Below are positions 533 through 16,054 of a DNA stretch of 64,000 nt, in pieces (positions within the stretch are counted from its first letter, which is position 1; each line of letters opens with the position of its first letter). The notes under the pieces are model-generated. The model worked only from the letters and a program-made list of their open reading frames with translations. It was not told the DNA's origin and searched no databases. The position numbers and the translations under genes are program-made. The DNA is taken from the IMG/VR virus record IMGVR_UViG_3300032232_001064, positions 8,860 through 72,859 of that record; one strand, written 5' to 3'. Source of the DNA: a virus (lineage: Duplodnaviria > Caudoviricetes).

Positions 533-1780
533 TTACTTAGTTTCAAAGTACGTTTTACGCACGAAGGATCGACTGAATCCTTTGTCCGTTTCAAGCAGGT
601 ACTCGCGATCGCCGATCAACTGTCCTTGTGGCCCGTTGGGTTGGCCGTCAAGTGCGGCAACAGTTGCCTCGCCGATCCACGTAGCGGCCTGCACAGCAAC
701 GGCCTTACCCCATGTCGCGCCGAGGGCGGAGTAGTTCTTTGCCTCGACAAATGACCAATCGTCAGGAAGTCCTTGAATTCTTGCAGCCTCACGATGCGTG
801 ATGCGGCGTGGTAGCGTCGGATGGACGATATGGTCCATGGCTCCACCGGTTAGCACGTGACAGAATGAATCAGCATCCCAGCGAACAGCTGTCGAGAATC
901 CAAGATAGAAATCCTTTCTACGAACTTTCTCTTCTTGACTAAGCCATGACTGCGGGAACTTGTCGCCGTTCTTTTCGACAGCTTGCTTAAGCGCGCCGGC
1001 AAGATCGACCATCGGACCCCACCCGTCATTGCCGATGATCTCAAAGATCTCGTCAATTCGTCTGGTGTCCATGCTGATCTTGTTCATGTGGCCGTCGACG
1101 ATACCCGTTTTAGTCCGAAGGCCGGCAACAAATGGACTAGGCTCTGACTGGCCATAGCTTTGCGGCTCCCACTGGACTTCGAGGTTCTCGAGGTCGCCGA
1201 TGATGTCTCTCATTCGAGGAATCTCGGTGGGATTCGTCACTGATGCGCCAAACGGCATTCCTTGCTCGACAGCTACCCAAAAATAGCGCATCCGGTATGA
1301 GAATCCACCGACCTGCAGGTTGTTGTGCTTTACGTGGTACAGGTCATACTTCTTACCTGACAGTTCTTCAAGCATGTTGCGATATTGAAGCATCACGGCG
1401 CGACCTTGCGTATACGCCTGCTGCACACACTCGAACACTACGATCTTTGGCTTTACGCGAGCTGCGTAGCGCATGAATGCGCGCGTGTGCTCGTGCGCAG
1501 CCGAGTCAGGTCCGCGCTTATCAGCGCCTGACCACACAGACCAGCCAGAACATGGTGGACATCCGATGACAGCGTCTACGTTTGCTGTGGGCCAGTCGTT
1601 CGGATCGTCACCAAACGCGGCACTCCAGTTGTCGCCCAGATGATGTCTGTTCAACTCGGCGACAGGGTTGCCAAAGTTCAATGTCCCAGTGCGGAGCTGC
1701 ATCTCCATGCCGGACTTGACAAAGCCAAGACTCATGAACGCAGCTAGTCCATTGCAGTCGATAAATGTGTGATCGCTCAT
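533..1780 (-). CDS. C5-cytosine DNA methyltransferase homologue (atypical motif I)
   Basis: Catalytic GCPPCSGWS (motif IV), VFECV (motif VI ENV-like), YRMRYFWVA (motif VIII), HREAARIQGLPDDW (IX) and WGKAV (X). Motif I reads IDCNGLAAFMSLGF instead of FxGxGG. Start trimmed to ATG 1780 (MSDHTFID). Confidence 0.85.
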   Translation of the reverse strand: MSDHTFIDCNGLAAFMSLGFVKSGMEMQLRTGTLNFGNPVAELNRHHLGDNWSAAFGDDPNDWPTANVDAVIGCPPCSGWSVWSGADKRGPDSAAHEHTRAFMRYAARVKPKIVVFECVQQAYTQGRAVMLQYRNMLEELSGKKYDLYHVKHNNLQVGGFSYRMRYFWVAVEQGMPFGASVTNPTEIPRMRDIIGDLENLEVQWEPQSYGQSEPSPFVAGLRTKTGIVDGHMNKISMDTRRIDEIFEIIGNDGWGPMVDLAGALKQAVEKNGDKFPQSWLSQEEKVRRKDFYLGFSTAVRWDADSFCHVLTGGAMDHIVHPTLPRRITHREAARIQGLPDDWSFVEAKNYSALGATWGKAVAVQAATWIGEATVAALDGQPNGPQGQLIGDREYLLETDKGFSRSFVRKTYFETK

Positions 1781-1838
1781 TGCGTGCTCCGTATGCGGAC
1801 GATGATACTTACAACCTATCATGGCCCGGGGGAGAACA

Positions 1839-2150
1839 TTACATGAGCAGGCTGTTTTCCTTGATACCGACCTCGTAGCCGCACGCGGCGTATCCCGCAA
1901 TGTCTGTCCAAGTGTCTGGCTGGAATCCAGCGCCCGCGGCGTATCTAGCCATCTTCACTCCGACCATCGCCATCGCAACATCTTCACGTGAAAACTTGCG
2001 ATCGAATAGCACTGTCCAGATCCTGGCGATCTTTTCGAAGTTGTCCTCTGGCCCGCCGTACTGCTCATCACGTTGGCCAGAGATGATACGTGCAACTTCG
2101 AGTAGCATTTCCTCACGCGCACTTTTCTTGCTGACGGCTGGCTTTGTCAT
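1839..2150 (-). CDS. DUF6378-like phage protein
   Basis: Pattern ISGQRDEQYGGPEDNFEKIARIW...DVAMAMVGVKMAR...DTWTDIAGYAAC is typical of this small helical phage family, often found in nucleotide-metabolism clusters. Confidence 0.7.
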   Translation of the reverse strand: MTKPAVSKKSAREEMLLEVARIISGQRDEQYGGPEDNFEKIARIWTVLFDRKFSREDVAMAMVGVKMARYAAGAGFQPDTWTDIAGYAACGYEVGIKENSLLM

Positions 2151-2583: not shown

Positions 2584-2825
2584 AGTTCTGCTACTTTCTT
2601 TTCAAGCCGGTACGGAGCATGTCGCGCACCGGATACGTAGGGAAGTCTTAGGTCAATTGTCGTGACGTGTACATCGCCGTCTTTTACGTCGATCACTCGG
2701 ACAAGCCGCCCGTTGTGTATCTTTCCGGCCGCGGTTTTATAAGCATCGAACTTTACGCGGAGAACGTCACCGGTTTTAAGGTCACTGGCCGAAACATCAG
2801 CCCACAAGGAGTTCACAGCGCTCAT
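2580..2825 (-). CDS. hypothetical protein (SH3-like beta pattern)
   Basis: Start at ATG 2825 gives an ATGA overlap with the upstream stop; LKTGDVLRV...GRLVRVIDVKDGDVHV is a beta-barrel-like pattern. Confidence 0.6.
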   Translation of the reverse strand: MSAVNSLWADVSASDLKTGDVLRVKFDAYKTAAGKIHNGRLVRVIDVKDGDVHVTTIDLRLPYVSGARHAPYRLEKKVAEL

Positions 2826-3295
2826 CGCTGAGGACACTGCACTTCAGTGCACGCTGACGTGTCATAGTCGTCGAGAGCCCGAGCGCACTGTGCGCACTTC
2901 ATTCCTGTATCAAGAACTCGGTATCCCTTTTTCTGTCGATCAGCGTTGAGCTGCATCTTGTTCAAGTATGCGAGGTCAAGTTCGTCGTCTGTTGCGCCAG
3001 CTGCGCACAGAATGTTCGCGACAAAGTGCAGAACATCGACGCATTCTTTGAGGATTTCACGACGATCGGCGTACGGGTCGTCGTGCTGCCACGGCTTCCA
3101 AGAAATTGCCTTACGCACCTCGGCAAGTTCGTCGTCAATGGCAAGCATGTTCCAACGAATATACTCGATGAGTGCGCGAAGATTTTCTGGTTCGTCGCTG
3201 TGAAAGACTGTGTAATCGACTCCGTAGGCTGTTTGCTGCAACTTTCGCGTAGCGTCTAGCCACTTGTGAAACAGGTAGTTGTTTGTCTCGCTCAA
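2822..3295 (-). CDS. all-alpha NTP pyrophosphatase, dimeric dUTPase / T4 gp56-like dCTPase
   Basis: AIDDELAEV...SWKPWQ...KECVDVLHFVAN gives the acidic metal-binding ExxE/ExxD pairs and the WKPW motif of the dUTPase_2/gp56 family. Confidence 0.8.
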   Translation of the reverse strand: MSETNNYLFHKWLDATRKLQQTAYGVDYTVFHSDEPENLRALIEYIRWNMLAIDDELAEVRKAISWKPWQHDDPYADRREILKECVDVLHFVANILCAAGATDDELDLAYLNKMQLNADRQKKGYRVLDTGMKCAQCARALDDYDTSACTEVQCPQR

Positions 3296-4302
3296 AACCC
3301 TAGCTCCTTGATCAATGCTTCGACAGAGTCATCGACCTTAGGCGTCGATGATAGAAAATCTTTTCGTTGCGCCATGGCGATCTCGAACCTGTCGATCTGT
3401 GACATGTCCTCGATGGTTGACGGTAAGCACGTCCATGATTCGCCAAGCCAGCTCGCCGACCGCCAGTCGGTCGCTACGACAGTGCCGGTGTTTACAGCTT
3501 GGATCATGCGAGGATTCCACCATAAAAGCCCTCCGTCGCTCGGAGCAATCATAACACCAGAGCACGTCAAAAGCCGTGCCTCAATGGCGTCATCAATCTC
3601 ACCTTTGTGTTCTTTGGCCGGCATCCAATTCCAAGTGAGCCCGTGTTTCACAGTCTCGAACCACTTTGACTTCGGCGTGTCGACGCACCAGAATGGACTT
3701 CTACCTCCTGGCAAAAAGCCACCGCCGACCTTGACTAACGCGGCGTCGACGTTGATAGCAACCACGGACGACGGGTCAGCATCAATACGTCTAGCGACAT
3801 CAGTGTTGCTTACGCCAACAGACGCCGGAAAGATTGTTCGCGGCGTCCAACCAGTAAGCATTCGCGCGGCTGTCCAGTCGAGTCGCGCGCGTAGCTCGGT
3901 ATCATCGAGAACGGCGCCATAGCCCTTTCTAGCGCGGTAGAGAGGCTTGACAAGATTGTCTGGCACACGATTTATCGCGCGAAAACTGGCCGGGATTTTG
4001 TCTGGGTCCGGTGCGTCAATCAGTAGCCGCAACTTCTCGCTATAGAAAAGAGAGTCTATTACGCTAAGTGCACCGTAGGCGTTGTTTGCACTAAGACTCA
4101 GGACTGGCGATACTCCAACAATGACAGAGTCGTACTCGTCGAATTCCGTAGCGTCTTTTGCAATCCACGGTTCACGATGATCGACTTCAATGTCTGCTTT
4201 TTGAAGTAACTTGGCGACAGCACCAGAGAATGTAGCATTCCTCTTTGCCAAACGTGCAGATGTCTGAGGAGCTGCCATTCCGGTGATAAGAACTTTTTTC
4301 AT
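3292..4302 (-). CDS. putative glycosyltransferase-like (GT-B) DNA-modification protein
   Basis: N-terminal Rossmann-like KKVLITG; C-terminal LLWWNPRMIQAVNTGTVVATDW resembles the GT-B donor-binding segment; coupled to the nucleotidyltransferase gene. Family assignment is tentative. Confidence 0.5.
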   Translation of the reverse strand: MKKVLITGMAAPQTSARLAKRNATFSGAVAKLLQKADIEVDHREPWIAKDATEFDEYDSVIVGVSPVLSLSANNAYGALSVIDSLFYSEKLRLLIDAPDPDKIPASFRAINRVPDNLVKPLYRARKGYGAVLDDTELRARLDWTAARMLTGWTPRTIFPASVGVSNTDVARRIDADPSSVVAINVDAALVKVGGGFLPGGRSPFWCVDTPKSKWFETVKHGLTWNWMPAKEHKGEIDDAIEARLLTCSGVMIAPSDGGLLWWNPRMIQAVNTGTVVATDWRSASWLGESWTCLPSTIEDMSQIDRFEIAMAQRKDFLSSTPKVDDSVEALIKELGF

Positions 4303-5042
4303 TACGCGTTGTCATTCTGTTGTTGGATATAGACAGACGGGATTCCTACATCAAATGCCTCAACGTCAAACAGTGACGTGTCGACGCTCATGATTTGGTC
4401 AAGGTGCGGACCGATCTTAATTTCTGCACCGTCATTTGTGATGTGACTATTCAGAAACGCGCGAGAAAGCACACTCGAGGCGACCTCAGTGTCGAATACG
4501 AGTGGTCCGCACCAGACTACAGATTCGCGAGTGAGTGGCCAGACATCTTCTTGGTTGATTTCAACGCCTTCAACGTATGAGTACAGTCCGCTAGGACGCA
4601 GCCTGACTCTCGTGAACCTAGCTGCCTTGTCAAGCTCGACATACCTGATCCCGACGGCGTCACAGTCCGTTCTTCTTACAGTGTCGGCCATTTCTACAAT
4701 GGTGTCGGTATTCATGATGTTGTCGCTCATCAAAAGCATCGTCTTTTTCGAAAGAACTTGTTCAATCCCGAGCATCGCTGCATGGCCAGGGCCAAATGGA
4801 TGCTCTTGAACTATGGTCGAAACCCAGGGACCGTATTCTGCAGTGATCTGCTCAATGTCGTCGGCGTTGCTCGGCGAAACAACAATGGTCACATGGTCTA
4901 CTTGCGCGGCGTCAGCGTATTGAATTGCGTATTTCAGTAGCGGAATGCCGTTCAATTCAAGAAGTGGCTTAAAGAATGGCTTTGCTAGTCCTTCCATCCG
5001 TTGACCACGACCTGCCGCAAGTATTACTGCTTCCAATGCCAT
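4302..5042 (-). CDS. sugar-phosphate nucleotidyltransferase (NTP_transferase family)
   Basis: VILAAGRGQRM...KPLLELNGIPLLKY signature, EHPFGPGHAA, LLMSDN, and C-terminal DVG. Confidence 0.9.
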   Translation of the reverse strand: MALEAVILAAGRGQRMEGLAKPFFKPLLELNGIPLLKYAIQYADAAQVDHVTIVVSPSNADDIEQITAEYGPWVSTIVQEHPFGPGHAAMLGIEQVLSKKTMLLMSDNIMNTDTIVEMADTVRRTDCDAVGIRYVELDKAARFTRVRLRPSGLYSYVEGVEINQEDVWPLTRESVVWCGPLVFDTEVASSVLSRAFLNSHITNDGAEIKIGPHLDQIMSVDTSLFDVEAFDVGIPSVYIQQQNDNA

Positions 5043-5542
5043 TCCTGCTTTGCCCAGATAAAGTCCCAGCCTGCAAGCATTGCAGGCCTGTGACCCTCGA
5101 TCCTGTCGTCGACGTACGTTCCAGTGTCGCTGATGTTTTGCATGATCATGAGCCGGTCGTCTGTCGAGATGCTCGACGCGAGTAGCGCATGGTGGTCTAA
5201 TCCCAGTTCCGACAGGATGGTCTTAGCGACCTCCTGGGTTGCACCAGTCACATAAAAGACCTGAGTGTCGTTGCGCTGTTCGAGCGCGGCCATGATCTGC
5301 GCGAAAGGAAGAGCATTTCGCTTGACTGCGCCGCTCTTCAGTACCTTTACGTACTCGCGTGTCTTTGTCGCATGGAGTTGCTCAGCGAGTTCATACGAGC
5401 CAACCGCACCTGGCAGCCACGTGTTCCACGGATGACCCCAAGCTTCGAGCGGCATGTCAACGCCGATGTGCTTGTACGATTCGCGCACAAGTTCACGTGA
5501 GTCAATGAGAACGCCGTCAATGTCTGAACACCAATACTTCAT
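5024..5542 (-). CDS. HAD-superfamily phosphatase
   Basis: Motif I DIDGVLIDS, motif II VTG, motif IV YVDD. Confidence 0.85.
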   Translation of the reverse strand: MKYWCSDIDGVLIDSRELVRESYKHIGVDMPLEAWGHPWNTWLPGAVGSYELAEQLHATKTREYVKVLKSGAVKRNALPFAQIMAALEQRNDTQVFYVTGATQEVAKTILSELGLDHHALLASSISTDDRLMIMQNISDTGTYVDDRIEGHRPAMLAGWDFIWAKQEWHWKQ

Positions 5543-5544
5543 TT

Positions 5545-6312
5545 TTATCTCCGTTCAATCGCTCTATCGAGAACAGAAAGCACAGATTTTACCGAGTTCG
5601 GCATGTTCTGAATGACGTATGGAAGAGCACGAACCACGTGGATAGTCGCCCACGCTTCGCCGACTGCGAAAAGCTCATCATCGGCTATCGCCTTTTTGAG
5701 ATCTCGCCTTGTAAAGGCTGAAAAACCGGTTGCGTACTTGGCGTGCTCCCAACCGCACGCGCTTTGCAGCATTTTTCCGATGTCGACAGCCGGTGAATCC
5801 GGGACTACCTCAGTTGCTTGGATTGGATCAATGAGAACTTTACCAAAGCCTGGTCTGTACATCACGTTTTCAGCTGTCGGATCGCCGTGCGTCAATGCGT
5901 GGTGCATCTCAAATGCGCCGGCGGCTGCTGTCTCTGCGTCACTCAGTATCTGACTTTTTGTTGTGTCTGAAATTATACCACTTAGCCACGTATCTATCGT
6001 GATCTGCATCTTCTCGAGAAGTAGACCAAGAGTCGACTGTGTAGGTGGTGCGACCGGAGGTTGAATCCAAACGTAGCTACGAAGCATCTCGACCATCTCG
6101 CTCGGATCAACTTCCCAGTAGTCGATGAACTCTAGCTTTTCCATGATGTATCCATCGGAAAGAAGAGCATAGACATGGGGAAACATTGAACCGACGCTAT
6201 GTATGACGATCCACTCGCCCTGCGCGCGCGTTCTTGCGCCGTCGCCGCCTTGCTTGGTGACGGTGTGTCCGTCGCCGTTATTGGTGACTACCGCGCCGGA
6301 CAATCCTCTCAT
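5545..6312 (-). CDS. APH/choline-kinase-fold phosphotransferase (putative sugar kinase)
   Basis: G-loop-like RGLSGA, VTK lysine, Brenner motif HGDPTAENVM, metal-binding LIDP, and DIGKMLQS. Confidence 0.85.
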   Translation of the reverse strand: MRGLSGAVVTNNGDGHTVTKQGGDGARTRAQGEWIVIHSVGSMFPHVYALLSDGYIMEKLEFIDYWEVDPSEMVEMLRSYVWIQPPVAPPTQSTLGLLLEKMQITIDTWLSGIISDTTKSQILSDAETAAAGAFEMHHALTHGDPTAENVMYRPGFGKVLIDPIQATEVVPDSPAVDIGKMLQSACGWEHAKYATGFSAFTRRDLKKAIADDELFAVGEAWATIHVVRALPYVIQNMPNSVKSVLSVLDRAIERR

Positions 6313-7550
6313 GAGAACGCACTCTCGATCATCACCTCAGCGGTCTTTCGAGGATCGTTTCTTGTGCGAAGAACTTCGCGGTTGTGCTGCGCGATTGCGA
6401 TGTGGTCAGCTTCTGGGATTTCAAGGCATGTCTGAAATGCGTCAGCGCACTTCTTGATTACCTCTATTCCTTCGTCTTTTACAAGACGACCCTGCGTCGG
6501 GGAACCTTTATACCAGTCGAGCACCATCATACGGAACTGAGAATCTGAAAGGTGGCCGGGCACGATACAGAGTGCGCCGGCATCTGCGGCCTCAAGCGTC
6601 GAGTATTCGACAAGCCCGCGCGCGAAATTGTGCGCGGTCAAATTCATGTGAACGCGGAACCGCTGAGCGATCTTTGACGAATCAACATAGTTCCCGAGGT
6701 ACCGAACAAGCGCGTGACCTTCGACACGCGCATCCCACGGATACGGCGTGATGATATTGCCGTCGGTTCGTTCAGTCTCTGTATCGAGATTCTTGTGATA
6801 ACGAAGCACCTTCGCGCCAAAGTGTTCTCTAAGAAGTTCATAGACGATGAACGTCGGCGACGGGCCAAGTCCGACAGAGCATGATCCCCAGACCTCAACG
6901 GTGACGTCTGGGTCTAGGAACACGCCGGTCATAGCGACAACAGGCTGCCCCTTGTTGTAGATAAACCGGCCTGACGTGCCAACGATCTTTTCGCGCTGGA
7001 CCGGGGCGTCGATCTCGAACTTCGGGATATAGGGCATAGGACCCTTAATCCAATCGACAGCCTTGAAAATGTCATTGCTATAGAGCGCAGAATCTTCGCT
7101 CATCGTGACAAGCTTGGTCCCACGCGATGGCGACTCAAGAAGCTTCGCAACGAACGGCACATCTTTGTCCGGGTAGAACGAACCGTGCAGCGACGTTGTC
7201 CACGGGGTCTTGGTCCGTAGGAGCGCGTCGACGTACTCAGGCAACGCGCCGCCACCTGCCTTTATCGCGGTCTTGTCGTGAAGCGGGATCTTAATTTCTG
7301 GAAGTACAACCATGTCATAGGTGTCAAGGCATTGAACAATGTCGACTGTTTTGACTGTGACGTCGGGAGCTTCACTCCACCACCGTCCACCAGGCTGTGG
7401 CTTTCCCCACGACGAACGCGCACGACCACTCTTCGTGTACGACACGACATCTGCTTCGTGACCAAGTGCCTTGAATCCGTAACGCAGACGAAACGCCCAC
7501 GCCGTCGGTCCCTTTACTCCAGGCTCTGGCTCAAGAATAGCGACTTTCAT
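6309..7550 (-). CDS. GT-B (GT4-like) glycosyltransferase
   Basis: LGHEADVV N-terminal motif, GTSGRFIYNKG (GR...KG), and GLVEYSTLEAADAGALCIV matching the GT4 Ex7E-region pattern (LEA..AG). Confidence 0.75.
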   Translation of the reverse strand: MKVAILEPEPGVKGPTAWAFRLRYGFKALGHEADVVSYTKSGRARSSWGKPQPGGRWWSEAPDVTVKTVDIVQCLDTYDMVVLPEIKIPLHDKTAIKAGGGALPEYVDALLRTKTPWTTSLHGSFYPDKDVPFVAKLLESPSRGTKLVTMSEDSALYSNDIFKAVDWIKGPMPYIPKFEIDAPVQREKIVGTSGRFIYNKGQPVVAMTGVFLDPDVTVEVWGSCSVGLGPSPTFIVYELLREHFGAKVLRYHKNLDTETERTDGNIITPYPWDARVEGHALVRYLGNYVDSSKIAQRFRVHMNLTAHNFARGLVEYSTLEAADAGALCIVPGHLSDSQFRMMVLDWYKGSPTQGRLVKDEGIEVIKKCADAFQTCLEIPEADHIAIAQHNREVLRTRNDPRKTAEVMIESAFS

Positions 7551-7632
7551 TCCATCTCCAAAACGTCTTTATCTCTTCAGTGTGTAAGCTATCACGGATT
7601 GATTGGCGAATCATGCAAAGCTCGCCAAAATG

Positions 7633-7680
7633 CAACGTGGAGGGCGTACTCGTTTGCACGAGCAGAGGCCCTCCACGTTG
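7633..7680 (-). terminator. stem-loop downstream of the SSB gene (probable intrinsic terminator)
   Basis: 13-bp perfect inverted repeat CAACGTGGAGGGC/GCCCTCCACGTTG plus inner CTCGT/ACGAG stem with a GCAA loop, followed by CATTTT on the minus strand. Confidence 0.7.
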
Positions 7681-7696
7681 ACTGGGTGTTCTTGGC

Positions 7697-8275
7697 TCAG
7701 AACGGAGCGCTGGGCGGAGTGTCGCCTGCAGCCGCCGGCTGCTCGGCAACTGCCTCAACGACAGGTGCAGGGGCCGGTGCAGGGGCCGGTGCGGGTGCCG
7801 GTGCAGGGGCCGGTGCGGGTGCCGGTGCAGGCGCAGGAGCGGGTGCCGCTGCAGCCACAGTGCCGGCTGCCGTTGTGGCGTAGTACGCCTTGACCTCGTT
7901 CTTCTTCTGTCCCTGCCACACACGGCTGCCGACCTGTGCGCGGAACGAGCGTCCCTTGAGCGCCTGCTCGATCTGAGCGTTGGTCGGGTTGGTCGAGAAG
8001 AATTCACGACCCAGGCCGAGTGCGCCCATCTTGCGGAAGAAAATGCCGAGCGCGTTGGGGTTGTCGGTCGAGACGACCAGGTTGTCCCACACGAGGCGCT
8101 TGGCGTGCGCGCCGGTGAGGACCTGCGCCTTGATGGCGAACATCGTCTTGCCGGTCTGTGTCTGCTTGGCGGTTGCCTCCATGATTGTGAGGTCGTAGTC
8201 GCCGTCGGGCAGCGGATCATAGCTGCCGACGTCGCCTGCGTCCTTGATGAGGTCGCCCCAGTTGAGTGTGCTCAT
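7697..8275 (-). CDS. DUF669-like phage ssDNA-binding protein
   Basis: YDPLPDGDYDLTI...KTMFAIKAQVLTG...RLVWDNL core, (PA)n linker and acidic/aromatic C-terminal tip (..SAPF); lies next to AAA_24 and the exonuclease. Confidence 0.75.
   Translation of the reverse strand: MSTLNWGDLIKDAGDVGSYDPLPDGDYDLTIMEATAKQTQTGKTMFAIKAQVLTGAHAKRLVWDNLVVSTDNPNALGIFFRKMGALGLGREFFSTNPTNAQIEQALKGRSFRAQVGSRVWQGQKKNEVKAYYATTAAGTVAAAAPAPAPAPAPAPAPAPAPAPAPAPAPAPVVEAVAEQPAAAGDTPPSAPF
7764..7847 (-). repeat. low-complexity hexamer repeat encoding a (Pro-Ala)n linker
   Basis: Tandem GCACCG/GCCCCT-type units, in frame with APAPAPAP... Confidence 0.9.
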
Positions 8276-8299: not shown

Positions 8300-9070
8300 T
8301 TACTTGGACTTTGCTGTGGACGTGGGCGCCGCTGCGCGGGGCCCGAAGACGATGTCGAGCATGTTTTCGACACCGAGATTTTGCTGCTCTACGATCTTAC
8401 CGAGCCTGCCTTGAACGCGCTCACCGGCTTCATACTGCGCAGTGCGCTCGACGTACATGCGTCGTGCCTTGTACGGCGGTTGCGTCGGGTCCTGGCTCGG
8501 AAATTCCTCGACGGACAGAGCGCCAAGGATATCATAGAAGTAGGGCGCCTGGATCGCAAGCTGTCCCTGAAGATACGGACGATACCGACCGTCCTGGCCT
8601 TGACGCGCCATGGCTGTTAGCACGACTGCCTCGAGCGGGTTGACAGGGTGCATCGTGAGGTCACGAAGATCGCGAAGAAGAGCACCCATGTGACGAAGAA
8701 GTTCGCCCCACTGCTGCATCTGCATCTGATTCTTGCCGGCGATGTTGTCAACGCACTTGACCTGAAGCTCTGACACTGAGTCGATGATCAACGACTTGAA
8801 CTGATGCTTGCCCAGCTGCAGCCACTGGTACGCCTTGAGCACCGTGTCATACTGCGTGACGTTCACGACGCAAGTGTCCCAGGTGCCGTCAGCGACGGGC
8901 GGTTCCTCGCGAAGCGGGTCCCAGTACTTGACGTTGATCGGCAAGAACCGGTGTCCACCTTCCACGTCGAGCATCAGCCGAGGATACGGAGCTGTGACCG
9001 CAAATGTCGACTTACCGACCTTGGATTCACCGTAGACCATGATGGTCAACGATCTCTGTACTTCTGCCAT
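8300..9070 (-). CDS. AAA_24 / Sak4-like P-loop recombination ATPase
   Basis: Walker A YGESKVGKST, LDVEGG, Walker B LIIDSVS; next to the SSB and exonuclease. Confidence 0.85.
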   Translation of the reverse strand: MAEVQRSLTIMVYGESKVGKSTFAVTAPYPRLMLDVEGGHRFLPINVKYWDPLREEPPVADGTWDTCVVNVTQYDTVLKAYQWLQLGKHQFKSLIIDSVSELQVKCVDNIAGKNQMQMQQWGELLRHMGALLRDLRDLTMHPVNPLEAVVLTAMARQGQDGRYRPYLQGQLAIQAPYFYDILGALSVEEFPSQDPTQPPYKARRMYVERTAQYEAGERVQGRLGKIVEQQNLGVENMLDIVFGPRAAAPTSTAKSK

Positions 9071-10029
9071 TATTCACTTCCTTTCATCTCTGGGGTCTTG
9101 TAGTAGTCATACGGATCGCCGGCCGAGTACAGCTCGACAATCGCGTGCTCCGCCGCACTGCCGTCGTCAAACAACGGGCACACAGCAAAGAAATTGCACT
9201 TCCACTTGCAGTCTCGACTCGGACGCGGATACGCCACATAGTGGTGATCGCCTCCTTCGTCAAGCGCCTTGCGTACGGCCATCATGTCTCGGACTTCTCC
9301 ATGAAGCCGGTTCCAGAATGCACGCAATGCGAACGTGTTGTGTCGAACTTCGATCTGATCATAGAACGGCGGCTTTGCGTTTGCGGTACGCTTGACCTTT
9401 TTGAGCATCGTGAAGATGCCGCCATCGCAACGTTCGCCCTCGGGATTATTCGCTGCTTCAAGGATCATGTACGTGAGGATCTGCTCGTTCATGTGTGCCA
9501 TGGAACCGAATTCAGCGAACGAACCGCCAACGGTCTTGAAGTCACGGAAGAGTCGAACACCGTCAGCCTTGCGACGAACACGCATGTCGAGCTTGCCTTG
9601 CAGCTCGACTTGGCCACCGAACATCGGCATCGCAATGATTTCCTCTGTCGAGATCATCTCGAGCTCGGCGTCAATCCCGTCTTCGTCAACCCACTGGAGG
9701 TATCCTTCGAGCATGATGCGTCCAAGTTCGGCCTCAGTGTCGAGTTCGTTTGTGTCACGAAATGACTGGCGAAGAAGGTCGCGATCGTTTTCCACGTGAG
9801 CCGCGTACGCATCCAAGAGTGGAATATTCTTGGAGTAGTAGTCATCCAACGCGGCGTGTACCCGTGAACCGAGTGCGAGCGCGCCGGTGAAATTCTGCTG
9901 GAGAGGCTTTAGGTTGCGGTAGTAGTTCAACCACCACTTCCGTCGGCAATCCTTAAATGTCTGGATTTCACTGTTCGAGATGCGGATAGGCCCGCGAACC
10001 TCGACAGGTGTTTCGATGATGTCTGTCAC
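9070..10029 (-). CDS. PD-(D/E)xK Cas4/RecB-like exonuclease
   Basis: ISNSEIQTFKDCRRKWW, GSRVH, LQGKLD...DFKT, and C-terminal CKWKC...C (4-Cys Fe-S staple). Confidence 0.85.
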   Translation of the reverse strand: MTDIIETPVEVRGPIRISNSEIQTFKDCRRKWWLNYYRNLKPLQQNFTGALALGSRVHAALDDYYSKNIPLLDAYAAHVENDRDLLRQSFRDTNELDTEAELGRIMLEGYLQWVDEDGIDAELEMISTEEIIAMPMFGGQVELQGKLDMRVRRKADGVRLFRDFKTVGGSFAEFGSMAHMNEQILTYMILEAANNPEGERCDGGIFTMLKKVKRTANAKPPFYDQIEVRHNTFALRAFWNRLHGEVRDMMAVRKALDEGGDHHYVAYPRPSRDCKWKCNFFAVCPLFDDGSAAEHAIVELYSAGDPYDYYKTPEMKGSE

Positions 10030-11822
10030 TTGCGACCTTTCTCGTCCTTGAGCATGTCAAGAAGCCTTGCCTTGTCTTTCACGATCTGTTCGAAGTTATC
10101 GGCCTTCGTGTCGAGCACTTGAATCACGCGCTCCTCGATTGTGCCCTCAGTGACATAGTCGATGATGAGAACAGAATCGTGAATTTCGCTACCGATGCGG
10201 TGCACGCGATCGAGCGCCTGCTTGTAATCAACAAGCGACCAAGGGCGCTGAAGCATCACCATCTGCCGTGCGGCCGTAAGCGTCACGCCGACGCCTCCAG
10301 CCTGTGCCGTAAACAGAATCCACTTGATGCGGCCGTTTTGGAAATCGTCGATCGCCTGTTGACGTTCGTCCTCGGACTGCGCGCCGGTGATCAACCCATG
10401 CGGAATCTTTGCCTTTGTCATTTCATCGCTAAGCAACTCGATAAGCTGGCGTGACACGGCGCAGACCGCAACAGAATCATCGCCAAAGTCGCCATTCTTG
10501 ATGTCGTCCATCAGCGCGTCGACCTTGCATGACGGTGCGGTTAGCTGCACCTCTGTGGTGCCATCAAACTCGTCGACGGAAATCTCGGCGTATGAACTAG
10601 CGAACTGCAGCAACCGGATAGTCTGCGTCAATGGACTAGGAGCAGTAAGTGCGTCCCCACCTTCAAGTTCTGCAATCATGAGATCGCGCATCTGCTGATA
10701 CGCTTTCTTTTGCTTTGTCGACATCTCGACATCGCGGCGTTCCTTGATGACAGGCGGCAGCCACGGCAACACACGTGCTTTCAACATGCGCCGCATACGT
10801 GGATTGATTGACGAGTAGAACTCGGATTCCATGTGAGGCTTGACACCGATGACCATGAGACCGCCAAAGGCGTTCATCATGGTGTCGACCATGCGATCAA
10901 TCCATCGAGTCTTGCTCGGCCAATCTTCCGGCGAAATCCAGTGCAAGATCGCCCAGAGGTCGAGAACGTTGTTCGCAATTGGCGTACCTGTGAGAGCAAA
11001 TCGAATGTCAGCGTCACCGGTTGCAGCCCAAAGCGCACGCGTCTGCTTGCTCTTCGGTTCCTTTGACCGGTGAATCTCATCAGCTACGACCGCTTTGAAG
11101 TCAATGCAGTTCAACTCACGACGATGAACTTCGCAGCGGTTTTCAGTGACCTTGTCGTCGTGCCCGCCGCAGGCAACGCAGCGCGCAAGCGCGACGGATC
11201 CGTAGGATGCGAGCTTCGAGTGAGCGCGAAGAGATTCCCAGTTGATAACGAACACGTCAGCGTTCTCTTCGAATTGCTTACGCCGAGCAGTAGCAGAACC
11301 GCTGATCACCTGCACGTTAGTGCCAGGCCACCACATCTCGAATTCGCGCTTCCAGTTCTTCTTCAGCGTGTTTGGGCAGACGACTAGCGCGGGGAAGACT
11401 TCTCCGCCTCGGTCTTGAATCTCTTTCAAGGCGCGGATTGTCTGCGCGGTCTTTCCCAGACCCGGCTCGTCGGCCAGAAGTGCCCGACGCGCCGTAGCCA
11501 GAAACTGGACGCCTGCGCGTTGGTGCGGGAACAGTTTCTCATCGCCCTCTGCATCTTCTAGATCACGCAACTCGTTGCACGGGTTGATTCTTGTTGTAAC
11601 TTCGTTCGAAGCCCAGGCCGTGAGCCGTGGACCGATCTGAAGTTCTGTCTTGAAGACTGAACGAAGCGCCAAGCATGTCGACCACGCGAGTGGGGCACTC
11701 CAGTGCTTGTCAGTCGCTGACCATGTCGCGCCTGGAATGCTCTTGCAGAGCTCCTTGTAGCGCCACTCTGTGTCGATCTTGATCTTCGTCCCTGCGTCAT
11801 TCAGTTCTACGTCAACCGGCAT
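10026..11822 (-). CDS. SNF2-family (SF2) helicase
   Basis: LLADEPGLGKT, VVADEIH, ALTGTPIAN, AGGVGVTLTAA, QALDRVHRIG. Confidence 0.95.
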   Translation of the reverse strand: MPVDVELNDAGTKIKIDTEWRYKELCKSIPGATWSATDKHWSAPLAWSTCLALRSVFKTELQIGPRLTAWASNEVTTRINPCNELRDLEDAEGDEKLFPHQRAGVQFLATARRALLADEPGLGKTAQTIRALKEIQDRGGEVFPALVVCPNTLKKNWKREFEMWWPGTNVQVISGSATARRKQFEENADVFVINWESLRAHSKLASYGSVALARCVACGGHDDKVTENRCEVHRRELNCIDFKAVVADEIHRSKEPKSKQTRALWAATGDADIRFALTGTPIANNVLDLWAILHWISPEDWPSKTRWIDRMVDTMMNAFGGLMVIGVKPHMESEFYSSINPRMRRMLKARVLPWLPPVIKERRDVEMSTKQKKAYQQMRDLMIAELEGGDALTAPSPLTQTIRLLQFASSYAEISVDEFDGTTEVQLTAPSCKVDALMDDIKNGDFGDDSVAVCAVSRQLIELLSDEMTKAKIPHGLITGAQSEDERQQAIDDFQNGRIKWILFTAQAGGVGVTLTAARQMVMLQRPWSLVDYKQALDRVHRIGSEIHDSVLIIDYVTEGTIEERVIQVLDTKADNFEQIVKDKARLLDMLKDEKGRK

Positions 11823-12697: not shown

Positions 12698-14520
12698 CAG
12701 TATTTGTCTCCCCACGTCTCAAGCGGACCGTCGACGTCAGCAGTTAGCGGCACAGCCCAACCTTCACGCGTTGTCATGCATTCACGAACAACTTGCATGA
12801 TCTCGCGGGCGTCCTTGCGCGGCGCCTGTAGCACGATTTCGTCGTGCACTGGAACGATCAGCATCTCAGTCAGATCTGCTTGGTCGAGCTTTACGAGGTT
12901 CGCCTTGAAAACCTCCGCGGCACCACCTTGAATGAGATAGTTGACAAGCGTGTACACGCGACCTTCGTCGCAAGGAAGTCGCCGACCTGTCCAAGTATAG
13001 ACGTAGCCTTGGCCTTCCTCGCGAACACGACGCATCCCAATGTCTTCAATCTGTCGCTGGAAGTACGCCATTCCAGGGAATCGACGATCAAACTCGTCTG
13101 ACGTGTGCTTCATTGCGGATTCGTGGACGCCGGCGGTAAGCGCCTGTTTCGCAACGCCGGCACCGTAAAGACGGCCATAGATCATGCTCTTGATAAGGCC
13201 ACGGCGCTTATCGGATTTCTGCATGTCTGGCTCGCTGTACACTTCACGGCCGATCTCGGTGAACGGATCAGAGCCGGTGCTATCTGCGACGTTGAACAGC
13301 GAGATCAGGTTTTCGTCGTTAGAGAGACTCGCAAACATTCTGAACTCGACCTGGTCAAGGTCAGAGGTGATGATGACGTGATCGTCGTCCTTCGGAATGA
13401 AGGCACGACGAACCGTTGCGTCACCCTTTGGCAGTGTTTGAAGCGCCGGGTTCGTAATCGACATGCGACTTGTTCGAGCGCCGAGCGTCTTTACAGACGG
13501 ATGCACAAAGCCGTCAACAGATTCAGTCAAGAAGTTGCTGAAGTACGTGTTCGCAAGCTTGTCAGCCTTGCGCTGCTTAAGAACAGTGTCGGCAAGTGTC
13601 TTGACTTCGTCGTTGCCGTCGCGAAGAAGAATCTTCAGCTGATCTTTAGTGCATGACTTTTGCCCAGTCGGCGTTGTTTCCGTAATCTCTGCACCAAGGC
13701 GCTCGAAAAGCCGAACGAGCTGGACGTTGCTCGTGATCGACACACCTTCATACTTTTGCTTGGCCCACGTCTTTACGCTATTAGTGTATGCGCTCAGCTC
13801 ATCATACTTCTGGCGTGAGTAGCCAAGGTCAACGCGTGCGCCGTTGATTTCCATGCGTGTGACGATTCGCCGCGCGGCCATTTCCAGCTCGTACGGACGG
13901 CTATACGCGCCGCTAGGGCCGCACTTGTCCCAGAACATTTCCCACAGTCTGGTCGTCAGCACGCAGTCGAGAGCGCCATATGACCAGTACGGTTGAAAGT
14001 TTGTCGGAACTGTTCCCCACGTCCAACCGTTCTTTACGAGCTCGGTATCGAGCGTCTCTTGAAGAGCCACAGCGCGACTATCGACGTGCAACGCCGCAAG
14101 ACGCTTTAGCGCGCCGGAACCAAGAGGATCTACGACATGCGCCATGATCATTGTGTCATGCGCTCTATGCCACGGAATATCCCACCGAGACTGGACATCG
14201 AACCATCGCGCCTCAAAGGCGATGTTGTGGCAGATCAACGGACCATCGAACTTGTTCATGGCCTCATAGAACACACCTGACCATTCGTCCCACGGAATCG
14301 ACCAGCCCTGCTCACCGTCACCGACTTGCACAAGTCGAAGCCGGCCGTGCCATGGAGAAAACGCATGGTCTCGAGGGTTGCCGGGCAGTTCTCCGGTTTC
14401 AGTGTCGACAGCCAGCGCGTTGTGCGGCCGTCTTTGCCCAATCCAGTGGATGAACTCCGCAGCCTTTTCGACATTGTCGACCAGATGAAGCTGGACGTTG
14501 GAAAGATCAGTCGTTGTCAT
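12697..14520 (-). CDS. polA: family A DNA polymerase with 3'-5' exonuclease
   Basis: Exo I AVDTETG, Exo II HNIAFE, Exo III YGALDC; motif A SDLDQVEFR, motif B KSMIYGRLYG, motif C VHDEI. Start trimmed to ATG 14520. Confidence 0.95.
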   Translation of the reverse strand: MTTTDLSNVQLHLVDNVEKAAEFIHWIGQRRPHNALAVDTETGELPGNPRDHAFSPWHGRLRLVQVGDGEQGWSIPWDEWSGVFYEAMNKFDGPLICHNIAFEARWFDVQSRWDIPWHRAHDTMIMAHVVDPLGSGALKRLAALHVDSRAVALQETLDTELVKNGWTWGTVPTNFQPYWSYGALDCVLTTRLWEMFWDKCGPSGAYSRPYELEMAARRIVTRMEINGARVDLGYSRQKYDELSAYTNSVKTWAKQKYEGVSITSNVQLVRLFERLGAEITETTPTGQKSCTKDQLKILLRDGNDEVKTLADTVLKQRKADKLANTYFSNFLTESVDGFVHPSVKTLGARTSRMSITNPALQTLPKGDATVRRAFIPKDDDHVIITSDLDQVEFRMFASLSNDENLISLFNVADSTGSDPFTEIGREVYSEPDMQKSDKRRGLIKSMIYGRLYGAGVAKQALTAGVHESAMKHTSDEFDRRFPGMAYFQRQIEDIGMRRVREEGQGYVYTWTGRRLPCDEGRVYTLVNYLIQGGAAEVFKANLVKLDQADLTEMLIVPVHDEIVLQAPRKDAREIMQVVRECMTTREGWAVPLTADVDGPLETWGDKY

Positions 14521-15016
14521 TGTTGTCGTCCCTATCCCAGAAAATAGTGTAGTCGATGCCAGTCTCTTTGAGATACGCAAACACTAGTTCAGGTCGTCTA
14601 TGAGCGTCATTCTCACTCGCGCGGCAGACGACACGGCGTATTCCAGAGTTGCTGATGAGCTTGGCGCACTGCATGCAAGGAACGCCAGTGACGTACAACG
14701 TACCACCATCGATGCTCGATCGGTCGACATACAGCAAAGCGTTCGCCTCCGCGTGGATGGCGGGGCACAGGTCATACGTGTTGTCGAGTGTCCCCTCGCC
14801 TCTCGCTCGAGGGCACCACCCAGAACACATGCCGTCGTGAGGCCACGAAGCAGCAGGCCCGTTGTAGCCTGTTGCTGCGATCCGCTGGTTTCCTGAAACG
14901 ATGACGGCGCCGATTCGGGCGCGAGAGCAGCGTGACTTTTTTGCTACGACGTCAGCTACAGCTATCCAGGTATCGTCCCACGAAGGAATGTCATCATTCG
15001 TCGTCTTCTGTGTCAT
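14507..15016 (-). CDS. dCMP deaminase
   Basis: SRCSRARIGAVIV...ATGYNGP...HAEANALL...PCMQCAKLI. Confidence 0.9.
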   Translation of the reverse strand: MTQKTTNDDIPSWDDTWIAVADVVAKKSRCSRARIGAVIVSGNQRIAATGYNGPAASWPHDGMCSGWCPRARGEGTLDNTYDLCPAIHAEANALLYVDRSSIDGGTLYVTGVPCMQCAKLISNSGIRRVVCRASENDAHRRPELVFAYLKETGIDYTIFWDRDDNNDND

Positions 15017-15194
15017 ATTGTTCCTCGTCCGACACCTCGTTCATTCCCATGACGAGCATTCTCGCTACGAGTTCCAGGGCGTCTCTTCGTGTAAATCCGG
15101 CTCGGCGCAGTGTCACATACATCTCATGCATGCTGATTGCCGCCTCTTCCATCGGCGATGCGTACTCGTAATCGTCATCGCCGTTGTTGCTCAT
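14994..15194 (-). CDS. hypothetical protein
   Basis: 66-aa coupled ORF (MHEMYVTLRRAGFTRRDALELV) resembling small actinophage proteins. Confidence 0.65.
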   Translation of the reverse strand: MSNNGDDDYEYASPMEEAAISMHEMYVTLRRAGFTRRDALELVARMLVMGMNEVSDEEQYDTEDDE

Positions 15195-16054
15195 GTCGCG
15201 TTCTTTTGACTGTTCTTATAGAACGCAGAGATCATCGAATCTGCGTACCAAGCTTCGGCATTGCCAAGAGACTCGTACGCTCTTTGCGAGTAGACAGCTG
15301 CAAGTGCGGTCTGCGCCATAGTCTTAATATTATCCCACGATGAACCAACGATCGGTGGAGGCGGTGACACAATCTCAGTCTTTTGAAGCTGCGTCGCCGC
15401 TTCGAAATTCGTCTCGTAGATGTGAAGCGAACCGACGTGGTGAGCATACTGACCAGGCTCAATCCCGAGGACACTGGCCATTGCGATCTGCACTCGCGTG
15501 AACTGAAAGAAATCATACGCGGCGCCAAGCCACACGTCGTTCGACCGCATGTACACGCTCATGTTGAGCTTTCCATTGCGTATCCGAAACTGATGCATGA
15601 CGGTGCACGGGTAGTCTCGCTTATGCGGAGTGTTGTCCTTAGACGGATCCCAAAGCGTGACGACCGCCTGCCGCGAATCAGTGTCATTTTTGAGCTTTTC
15701 GATCACAGCTTCATACTGTCCGCTGGTTCGCGTACCGTACGACCCGTGAAACTTGCCGTCTTCTTCTGCGTAGTTCTTAAACTGCGGACCGATCGCGATC
15801 ACGGTTTCCGGTACCGCAACTCCGCCGAGAAGTTGGCACGCTTCGACGGCACCAATGCCTGCGACCGGGTTGCGCTTGACGCCGACGGGCAATGTCGCAA
15901 AGACGTTGTCGATGTAGACAACCGCGTCTTCAATCTCAAGAGTGCCGAGCCCTCGAGGAGCTACTCGGTCGCCGTAGATAAGGACATGGTTGACAAGATC
16001 AACATAGCCGTTGACGCCGTCTTCGATTTCAATGGACTTTATGGAAGCTCCCAA
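15191..16054 (-). CDS. thymidylate-synthase-fold enzyme, probable dCMP hydroxymethylase-type
   Basis: DSRQAV, catalytic YPCT, MRSNDVWLGAAYD (Asp at the position of the E. coli TS Asn177 specificity residue, as in T4 gp42), HVGSLHIYE. Confidence 0.85.
   Translation of the reverse strand: MGASIKSIEIEDGVNGYVDLVNHVLIYGDRVAPRGLGTLEIEDAVVYIDNVFATLPVGVKRNPVAGIGAVEACQLLGGVAVPETVIAIGPQFKNYAEEDGKFHGSYGTRTSGQYEAVIEKLKNDTDSRQAVVTLWDPSKDNTPHKRDYPCTVMHQFRIRNGKLNMSVYMRSNDVWLGAAYDFFQFTRVQIAMASVLGIEPGQYAHHVGSLHIYETNFEAATQLQKTEIVSPPPPIVGSSWDNIKTMAQTALAAVYSQRAYESLGNAEAWYADSMISAFYKNSQKNAT

Follow-up and report, generated by a model that had tools for sequence, protein, structure and literature searches.

Does a run of five tightly packed genes in an uncultured phage genome allow the phage to dress its own DNA with a sugar that it makes itself? 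The genes occupy positions 3292–7550 of a 64,000-nucleotide stretch (the window; positions 8,860 to 72,859 of the 72,859-base IMG/VR record IMGVR_UViG_3300032232_001064), and they encode two predicted glycosyltransferases (GTs) on either side of a putative kinase, phosphatase and nucleotidylyltransferase (the trio). The nearest named relative of the record is Actinomycetia phage DSL-LC01, assembled from a lake metagenome, and the phage is a freshwater one with an actinobacterial host group. Most likely, it coats the cytosines of its DNA with a self-made sugar and thereby escapes host nucleases. We judge it likely, if not strongly so, that 5-hydroxymethylcytosine (5hmC) is made before replication and is then glycosylated by two enzymes of the GT-B fold, at least one of which would use a phage-made nucleoside diphosphate (NDP) sugar. 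The five genes, with product lengths in amino acids (aa), are:

6309–7550, minus strand: 413-aa GT-B glycosyltransferase, GT4-like and resembling the T4 alpha-glucosyltransferase (AGT), from predicted fold and family motifs
5545–6312, minus strand: 255-aa small-molecule kinase of the APH (eukaryotic-like) fold, probably a sugar kinase, from a weak Pfam APH match and motifs
5024–5542, minus strand: 172-aa capped HAD-superfamily phosphatase (or phosphomutase), from weak Pfam matches and motifs
4302–5042, minus strand: 246-aa sugar-1-phosphate nucleotidylyltransferase, from Pfam matches above cut-off
3292–4302, minus strand: 336-aa GT-B glycosyltransferase with the T4 beta-glucosyltransferase (BGT) as nearest solved structure, from predicted fold

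All five minus-strand open reading frames (ORFs; 413, 255, 172, 246 and 336 aa) are present at these coordinates and overlap or nearly abut, the successive junctions from the 413-aa to the 336-aa gene being a 4-nucleotide (nt) overlap, a 2-nt gap, a 19-nt overlap and a 1-nt overlap. A preliminary description of the locus had named them as coupled genes of these families, and the labels hold, with differing strength. The same description had the cassette running straight into a dCTPase-like gene and a methyltransferase homologue; the first part is right, the 336-aa gene overlapping the dCTPase-like gene by 4 nt, whilst the methyltransferase homologue does not abut the cassette and lies approximately 0.9 kb past it, after four small ORFs.

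Two GT-B transferases and a sugar-activation trio

Neither transferase candidate had a sequence match in Pfam (E 0.01 for the 413-aa protein), PHROG, NCBIfam or PDB chains, where the results amounted to noise. Metagenomic homologues, 30 of the 336-aa and 70 of the 413-aa protein, were the basis for alignment and AlphaFold modelling, and both models adopt a GT-B fold, with a predicted local distance difference test (pLDDT) score of 94 for the 336-aa protein and 90 for the 413-aa protein. Comparison of these models with BGT, AGT and GT4 structures bears out the earlier suggestion that both proteins are glycosyltransferases. For the 336-aa model, Foldseek ranked T4 BGT first (E 5e-6) and the DNA arabinosyltransferase of phage HY126 sixth, and in VIA-align the model superposed on T4 BGT with Z 18.6 and a root-mean-square deviation of 3.8 over 297 aligned residues, compared with Z 17.4 for SenB, approximately 16 for further GT-B enzymes and 14 for the HY126 enzyme. 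None of the 30 members of the family matched a Pfam GT family, and an hhalign comparison of the family with T4 BGT returned a probability of 2%, indicating no kinship at the sequence level. The 336-aa gene adjoins the dCTPase gene in most related loci.

The best Foldseek matches of the 413-aa model were HepE and T4 AGT (E 2e-11 to 7e-11). VIA-align returned Z 25–26 against retaining GT4-type enzymes (HepE, PimA, BshA and TarM) and Z 25.0 against T4 AGT, which gave the longest aligned stretch (330–335 residues). Two motifs, GRFxxNKG and EYSTLEA, are invariant in 40 homologues and, matched by eye, appear to correspond to the GT4 motif for the NDP phosphates (G-R-x4-K-G) and to the C-terminal acidic E...EA motif. 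The enzyme is probably retaining and probably uses the phage-made donor; a natural fusion of this transferase to the kinase occurs in a metagenomic protein of 683 aa (P0055).

Within the trio, the nucleotidylyltransferase is, by its sequence, securely assigned as a sugar-1-phosphate enzyme, matching NTP_transf_3 with 59.5 bits (E 6e-16; cut-off 27) and NTP_transferase with 38.5 bits (E 1.3e-9; cut-off 21.2). Its N-terminal G-x-G-x-R signature, LAAGxGQRM, is invariant in 12 homologues, and its N-terminal 140–200 residues match RmlA, GlmU, AglF and, weakly, HddC models. The kinase carries every catalytic element of the eukaryotic-like/APH fold (GLSGA, Lys20, HGDxTxEN and IDP), invariant in 13 sequences; its atlas neighbours are viral APH clusters, and its profile gave a single marginal protein-kinase match in PDB (E 0.0056). 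A profile search of 1.84 billion representatives returned 590 clusters of the kinase family, whilst tblastn found no match to the kinase among 50,697 isolated phage genomes. Two natural fusions belong to this family, one with an N-terminal NTP_transferase domain (P0197), the architecture reported for AfhE, and one with a PRA-PH/MazG-like pyrophosphatase domain (P0204). HAD motifs I, II and IV (DIDGV, YVTGA and YIDDR) are invariant in 12–13 homologues of the phosphatase; an insert of approximately 80 residues separates motifs I and II, so the protein is of the capped type, and the best PDB match of its profile was the sugar phosphatase TM_1254 (E 0.011).

A search for SIS isomerases (PF01380) detected none in the 72.9-kb record, itself incomplete, or in five related, likewise incomplete genomes (44–87% complete), whilst all control genomes matched; NAD-dependent epimerase/dehydratase genes were likewise not found in the record or in these five. 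The trio is therefore self-contained and has to draw on a sugar or sugar-phosphate supplied by the host. For want of SIS and NAD-epimerase genes in the record and its relatives, neither a heptose nor an arabinose route was considered further. The NDP-heptose pathway (GmhA/HddA/GmhB/HddC), from which the preliminary description had drawn its analogy, fits poorly in its other parts too, the kinase being of the APH fold and not GHMP and the HAD protein being capped and not GmhB-like. Closer parallels are MupP/AmgK/MurU and the AfhE/AfhF enzymes discussed below. AmgK is itself an APH-fold kinase. Recycling of N-acetylmuramic acid by MupP, AmgK and MurU employs a HAD_2 phosphatase, an anomeric kinase and a uridylyltransferase (PMC5371407), and shares with the trio its three enzyme classes and a stand-alone salvage logic without isomerase; the likeness is one of logic alone, and the window's product would feed DNA transferases rather than peptidoglycan synthesis.

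The predicted target base and the proposed pathway

What the transferases would act on is suggested by three further genes:

2822–3295, minus strand: 157-aa all-alpha nucleoside triphosphate (NTP) pyrophosphatase, candidate gp56-like dCTPase, from Pfam, PHROG and identity to RB69 gp56
15191–16054, minus strand: 287-aa thymidylate-synthase (ThyA) homologue, predicted 5-hydroxymethyl-dCMP (hm-dCMP) synthase, from Pfam Thymidylat_synt and gp42-type residues
16039–17043, minus strand: 334-aa protein with an N-terminal thymidylate-kinase-like domain, candidate hm-dCMP kinase, from phrog_761

The pyrophosphatase matched Pfam dUTPase_2 above cut-off (1.4e-11), the PHROG dUTPase / NTP-PPase annotation and, with 31% identity (E 6e-12), the RB69 gp56 dCTPase, making it a candidate for both depletion of the dCTP pool and supply of dCMP. 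For the ThyA homologue, the best PDB match was the CMP hydroxymethylase MilA. Within the ThyA family, N177D selects dCMP, L143D/E accompanies non-methyl products and D169N marks 5-hydroxy-dCMP synthases (Lee et al., PMC13326640). Aligned with T4 gp42 and RB69 gp48, the window protein reads DYPC (L143D), MRSND (D169 kept) and YD (N177D); MRSND is common to T4 gp42 and the window homologue, whereas RB69 has MRSQN, with Asn at position 169. The hmC-type signature recurred in 23 related loci, all 23 with Asp at 169, and neither the record nor the complete genome of DSL-LC01 encodes a second ThyA homologue. Because this sole homologue carries the gp42 residues and not the residue of 5-hydroxycytosine synthases, the target base is probably 5hmC. 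The 334-aa protein matched phrog_761 (thymidylate kinase) with E 1.2e-11 over residues 1–152 and had no Pfam match; its gene always adjoins that of the ThyA homologue in relatives. Together, the ThyA homologue, the gp56-like pyrophosphatase and the kinase-like protein would constitute the T-even recipe for pre-replicative 5hmC.

The position of the cassette is consistent with such a role. The window is a one-directional stretch of phage genome, and its gene blocks, read on the minus strand from high to low coordinates, begin with a structural block (head, tail and giant head protein) extending from approximately 60 kb down to 17.6 kb. The replication module follows, comprising in order the 334-aa kinase-like protein, the ThyA homologue, a dCMP deaminase, PolA, an SNF2 helicase, a PD-(D/E)XK nuclease, Sak4 and a 229-aa protein. 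After the 229-aa gene, which overlaps the 413-aa gene by 20 nt, come the five-gene cassette, the dUTPase_2/MazG-like gene described above, the four small ORFs and the methyltransferase homologue, so that 9–14 kb lie between the cassette and the end of the structural genes. A GGAG precedes the ATG at 7550, and promoter-like and terminator-like sites showed no excess over shuffled controls.

From the GT-B folds near the T4 enzymes, the replication-module position, the gp56-like dCTPase, the gp42-type signature, motifs, homologies, synteny and fusions, we infer the activities, acceptor, sugar and order of steps of the following pathway. The gp56-like pyrophosphatase would convert dCTP to dCMP, the ThyA homologue would hydroxymethylate the dCMP, the neighbouring kinase-like protein together with host NDP kinase would yield hm-dCTP, and the phage family-A polymerase would incorporate it as 5hmC. 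In parallel and without help from an isomerase, the trio would convert a host sugar or sugar-phosphate to an NDP-sugar, probably in the order HAD phosphatase (sugar-6-phosphate to free sugar), APH-fold anomeric kinase (to sugar-1-phosphate) and nucleotidylyltransferase (to NDP-sugar), or alternatively in an Afh-like order of kinase, phosphatase and nucleotidylyltransferase via a bisphosphate. The 413-aa and 336-aa enzymes would then glycosylate the hydroxymethyl group of 5hmC in DNA, each modifying its own set of cytosines in the manner of T4 AGT and BGT, or the two working in sequence to build a disaccharide. The earlier proposal that the phage makes its own sugar donor and places one or two sugars on modified cytosine was backed by every computational test applied; as its heptose analogy and its claim of novelty do not hold, the earlier interpretation is partly supported overall.

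In its overall plan the system resembles the glucosyl-5hmC system of T-even phages, with which it shares gp42-type ThyA residues, a gp56-like dCTPase, a position in the early/replication region, and two GT-B transferases that are nearest or tied-nearest in structure to BGT and AGT. It differs in that the transferases have no sequence kinship to GT63 or GT72, in its own donor pathway, where T4 uses host UDP-glucose, and in its actinobacterial host group, family-A polymerase and accompanying C5-methyltransferase homologue. The last of these and the deaminase of the replication module are as follows:

533–1900, minus strand (true start probably near 1780): C5-cytosine methyltransferase homologue, Pfam DNA_methylase 4e-21
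14507–15016, minus strand: dCMP deaminase, beside the cytosine-specific ThyA homologue

The methyltransferase homologue is 66% identical to that of DSL-LC01, which starts at window residue 44. It keeps the catalytic PC, an ENV-like ECV and R-x-R; its motif I reads DCNGLAAF and is not the glycine-rich loop that binds S-adenosylmethionine (SAM). Most related loci long enough to include this region, those of Gordonia phages among them, encode it together with the dCTPase-like gene. No canonical thymidylate synthase was found in the record, and the deaminase may supply dUMP for host ThyA/ThyX or deaminate hm-dCMP. Between the dCTPase-like gene and the methyltransferase homologue, relatives keep a DUF6378-type small protein (window 1839–2150, minus strand), for which the PHROGs name 'phosphofructokinase' is probably a misnomer.

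Variation of the slot and alternative readings

To place the cassette among its relatives, IMG/VR was scanned with the 413-aa family, yielding 44 loci, to which ENA and JGI contigs were added by exact look-up, and window proteins were compared by tblastn. The full order (413-aa transferase, kinase, HAD, nucleotidylyltransferase, 336-aa transferase, dCTPase and, further on, methyltransferase homologue) was found in 21 loci, with approximately eight more cut by contig ends. The two transferases occurred without the trio in 5–7 loci, the 413-aa transferase alone in 2–3 and the 336-aa transferase alone in two. In DSL-LC01 (8356–11501) and locus L005 (8793–11044), the slot is instead occupied by two tandem BGT-like paralogues (hhalign probability 99.7%), the 411-aa protein of L005 being one of these and without a match to the 413-aa family. 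Between its two paralogues, DSL-LC01 encodes a UDP-galactopyranose mutase, in the slot held by the trio in the window, suggesting a galactofuranose-based variant of the system. Since transferases occur in the same slot with or without a trio or a mutase, the interval from Sak4/SSB to the dCTPase is an exchange hotspot for transferases and sugar-supply modules; the glucosyltransferases of T-even phages show comparable variation. A UDP-galactopyranose mutase also accompanies hexosyl-5-hydroxycytosine in Rhizobium phage RL38J1 and Pootjesviridae (PMC13326640), although RL38J1 uses 5-hydroxycytosine whereas DSL-LC01 has an hmC-type synthase, and the window itself lacks the mutase.

More distant phages keep the trio beside a different partner. 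In loci L060 and L061, kinase, HAD and nucleotidylyltransferase genes are followed by a gene for a 424–438-aa protein, then by the dCTPase-like gene and the methyltransferase homologue:

L060, 9911–11185, and L061, 9983–11299: 424–438-aa protein, after the trio and preceding the dCTPase-like gene

The 438-aa protein had no hhalign match to either GT family and is probably another transferase type. L061, the locus that reaches far enough, encodes a ThyA homologue that is very gp42-like.

Several observations weigh against DNA glycosylation as the function of the cassette. Both transferases resemble T4 enzymes in fold alone, being without sequence kinship to these (GT63/GT72) or to Pfam GT families, and even in fold T4 BGT scores only approximately one Z unit above SenB and further GT-B enzymes for the 336-aa protein, whilst T4 AGT is tied with ordinary GT4 enzymes for the 413-aa protein. 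The fold marks the two proteins as glycosyltransferases and is compatible with a DNA acceptor, although a GT-B fold does not fix the acceptor. Pfam matches of the kinase (APH, E 5.7e-4) and of the HAD protein (Hydrolase, E 1.2e-4; HAD_2, E 1.7e-3) fall below cut-off, and the sugar cannot be named because the nucleotidylyltransferase matches solely via its nucleotide-binding half. In a tree of the 413-aa family, sequences from trio-bearing loci group together, compatible with a single origin of the trio-linked clade and a hint that this transferase uses the product of the trio; support for the branch that decides this is low (50/47), the sequences are related, and the tree was not used as evidence of donor specificity. 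The proposed pathway leaves unexplained two further genes of the module, those for the C5-methyltransferase homologue and the dCMP deaminase, and a C5-methyltransferase would be without substrate if all cytosine were glycosyl-5hmC. The source record is approximately 50% complete and from an uncultured phage, and the DNA-glycosylation reading is a credible computational prediction.

Among alternatives, the one that survives best, which we nonetheless think improbable, is that the cassette glycosylates virion proteins, host envelope polymers or some other non-DNA target, as an auxiliary metabolic cassette whose nucleotide-gene neighbourhood is incidental. Phages often encode GT4-like enzymes, and glycosylated virion proteins are known from some actinophages. 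In the paper on DSL-LC01, the UDP-galactopyranose mutase of that phage is interpreted as a cell-wall auxiliary metabolic gene and its methyltransferase as an ordinary methylase (PMC10611076). The location of the cassette argues otherwise, however, since it lies inside the replication module, overlaps the dCTPase gene and is remote from the structural genes, as do its co-occurrence with the gp42-type synthase, the dCTPase and the methyltransferase homologue across distant relatives and the existence of the kinase–MazG-like fusion. Moreover, the record encodes a third GT4-type glycosyltransferase (Glyco_trans_1_4; phrog_3408) at record positions 6638–7738 on the plus strand, approximately 1.1 kb before the first base of the window (record 8860); this gene lies on the opposite strand to the cassette, in a block that starts with a collagen-repeat protein, and is a better candidate than the cassette for virion or host-surface glycosylation.

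Less probable again is that the trio yields something other than an NDP-sugar, the kinase phosphorylating 5hmC in DNA to create a leaving group, as 5-HMUDK does on 5-hydroxymethyluracil, or the nucleotidylyltransferase activating choline-, glycerol-, ribitol- or inositol-phosphate, so that the modification would be partly non-glycosidic. The APH fold also covers choline/ethanolamine kinases, the nucleotidylyltransferase also matches IspD, LicC and inositol-1-phosphate cytidylyltransferase models, and the kinase–MazG-like fusion could be counted on this side too; kinase-driven hypermodification of hydroxymethyl pyrimidines is established (PMC5889632). Yet the best nucleotidylyltransferase matches are the sugar-1-phosphate enzymes RmlA, GlmU and AglF, the kinase family fuses to NTP_transferase in the AfhE architecture, and the trio is flanked by two GT-B glycosyltransferases that require an NDP-sugar, which makes this the less economical explanation.

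The nearest published counterparts are the Afh arabinosyl-5-hydroxycytosine systems of RB69, DLP3 and HY126, in which phage-encoded NDP-sugar synthesis serves cytosine glycosylation and AfhE is a biochemically characterised sugar kinase/pyrophosphorylase (PMC13326640). These share with the window a kinase, a HAD phosphatase and a nucleotidylyltransferase, several GT-B DNA transferases, a dCTPase and a ThyA homologue. They differ in that kinase and nucleotidylyltransferase are separate genes in the window, AfhE being a bifunctional nucleotidylyltransferase-kinase, and in that the capped HAD of the window shows no similarity to the capless AfhF/gp51. That the window phage makes arabinosyl-5-hydroxycytosine, its ThyA homologue giving 5-hydroxy-dCMP and its trio UDP-arabinose, is very unlikely despite the common logic and parts list, the weak similarity of the kinase family to the RB69 gp52 kinase domain (hhalign probability 49%, E 1.7e-4, 171 columns), the nucleotidylyltransferase-kinase fusions in that family (P0197) and the HY126 transferase among the structural matches, since the window protein reads MRSND as in T4 gp42 and lacks the diagnostic D169N, no SIS arabinose-5-phosphate isomerase was found in the record or its five relatives of up to 87% completeness, and neither the HAD protein (compared with the small HAD gp51 of RB69 by BLASTP and family hhalign) nor the nucleotidylyltransferase (compared with RB69 gp53 by BLASTP) showed detectable similarity to its counterpart. 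The sugar of the window phage is probably not arabinose.

Novelty and cultured relatives

With phage NDP-sugar synthesis for cytosine glycosylation already published (PMC13326640), to call the system undescribed, as the preliminary description did, was too strong. T4 and the arabinosyl-5-hydroxycytosine phages already exemplify the logic, and no new principle is involved; what is new is the combination of an hmC-type synthase with a private donor trio that dispenses with an isomerase, together with two transferase families without sequence relatives, an actinobacterial host group and a modular hotspot. If glycosylation of 5hmC is indeed the function, T4-style cytosine replacement and glycosylation would reach the actinobacterial phages that are abundant in lakes, and the sugar-supply module would be a swappable part of the system, its slot holding no module, a UDP-galactopyranose mutase or a trio. 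The cassette would also provide a compact three-enzyme route to an NDP-sugar and two sequence-new families of DNA glycosyltransferases, useful as 5hmC-labelling enzymes with new donor specificities. The DNA of these phages is predicted to resist restriction, and its modified bases may bias sequencing or long-read base-calling. A more ambitious version, which we hold only tentatively, is that a widespread lineage of freshwater actinobacterial phages has, in place of cytosine, 5hmC bearing a sugar new to DNA, supplied by a salvage trio and attached by two sequence-new transferase families, with the SAM-blind C5-methyltransferase homologue perhaps adding a further chemical step.

Homologues of the BGT-like transferase, uncovered by a BFVD search and by tblastn against isolated phages, are also encoded by phages of Gordonia terrae, including Phendrix, GodonK, Sixama, Forza and others. 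The BGT-like gene of Phendrix and Sixama stands beside annotated glycosyltransferases, a MazG-like pyrophosphatase, a methyltransferase homologue and WhiB; the approximately 417-aa glycosyltransferases of these two phages share the C-terminal domain of the 413-aa transferase (24–26% identity), and each phage has one ThyA homologue, with hmC-type residues. A literature search found no published description of DNA modification for these Gordonia phages. From the gene content of Phendrix and Sixama, glycosylated 5hmC is predicted in the DNA of these cultivable isolates. Phendrix, GodonK and Sixama have in common with the window the core of transferases, dCTPase, methyltransferase homologue and hmC-type synthase, without the trio, and the central claim is therefore testable in cultured isolates.

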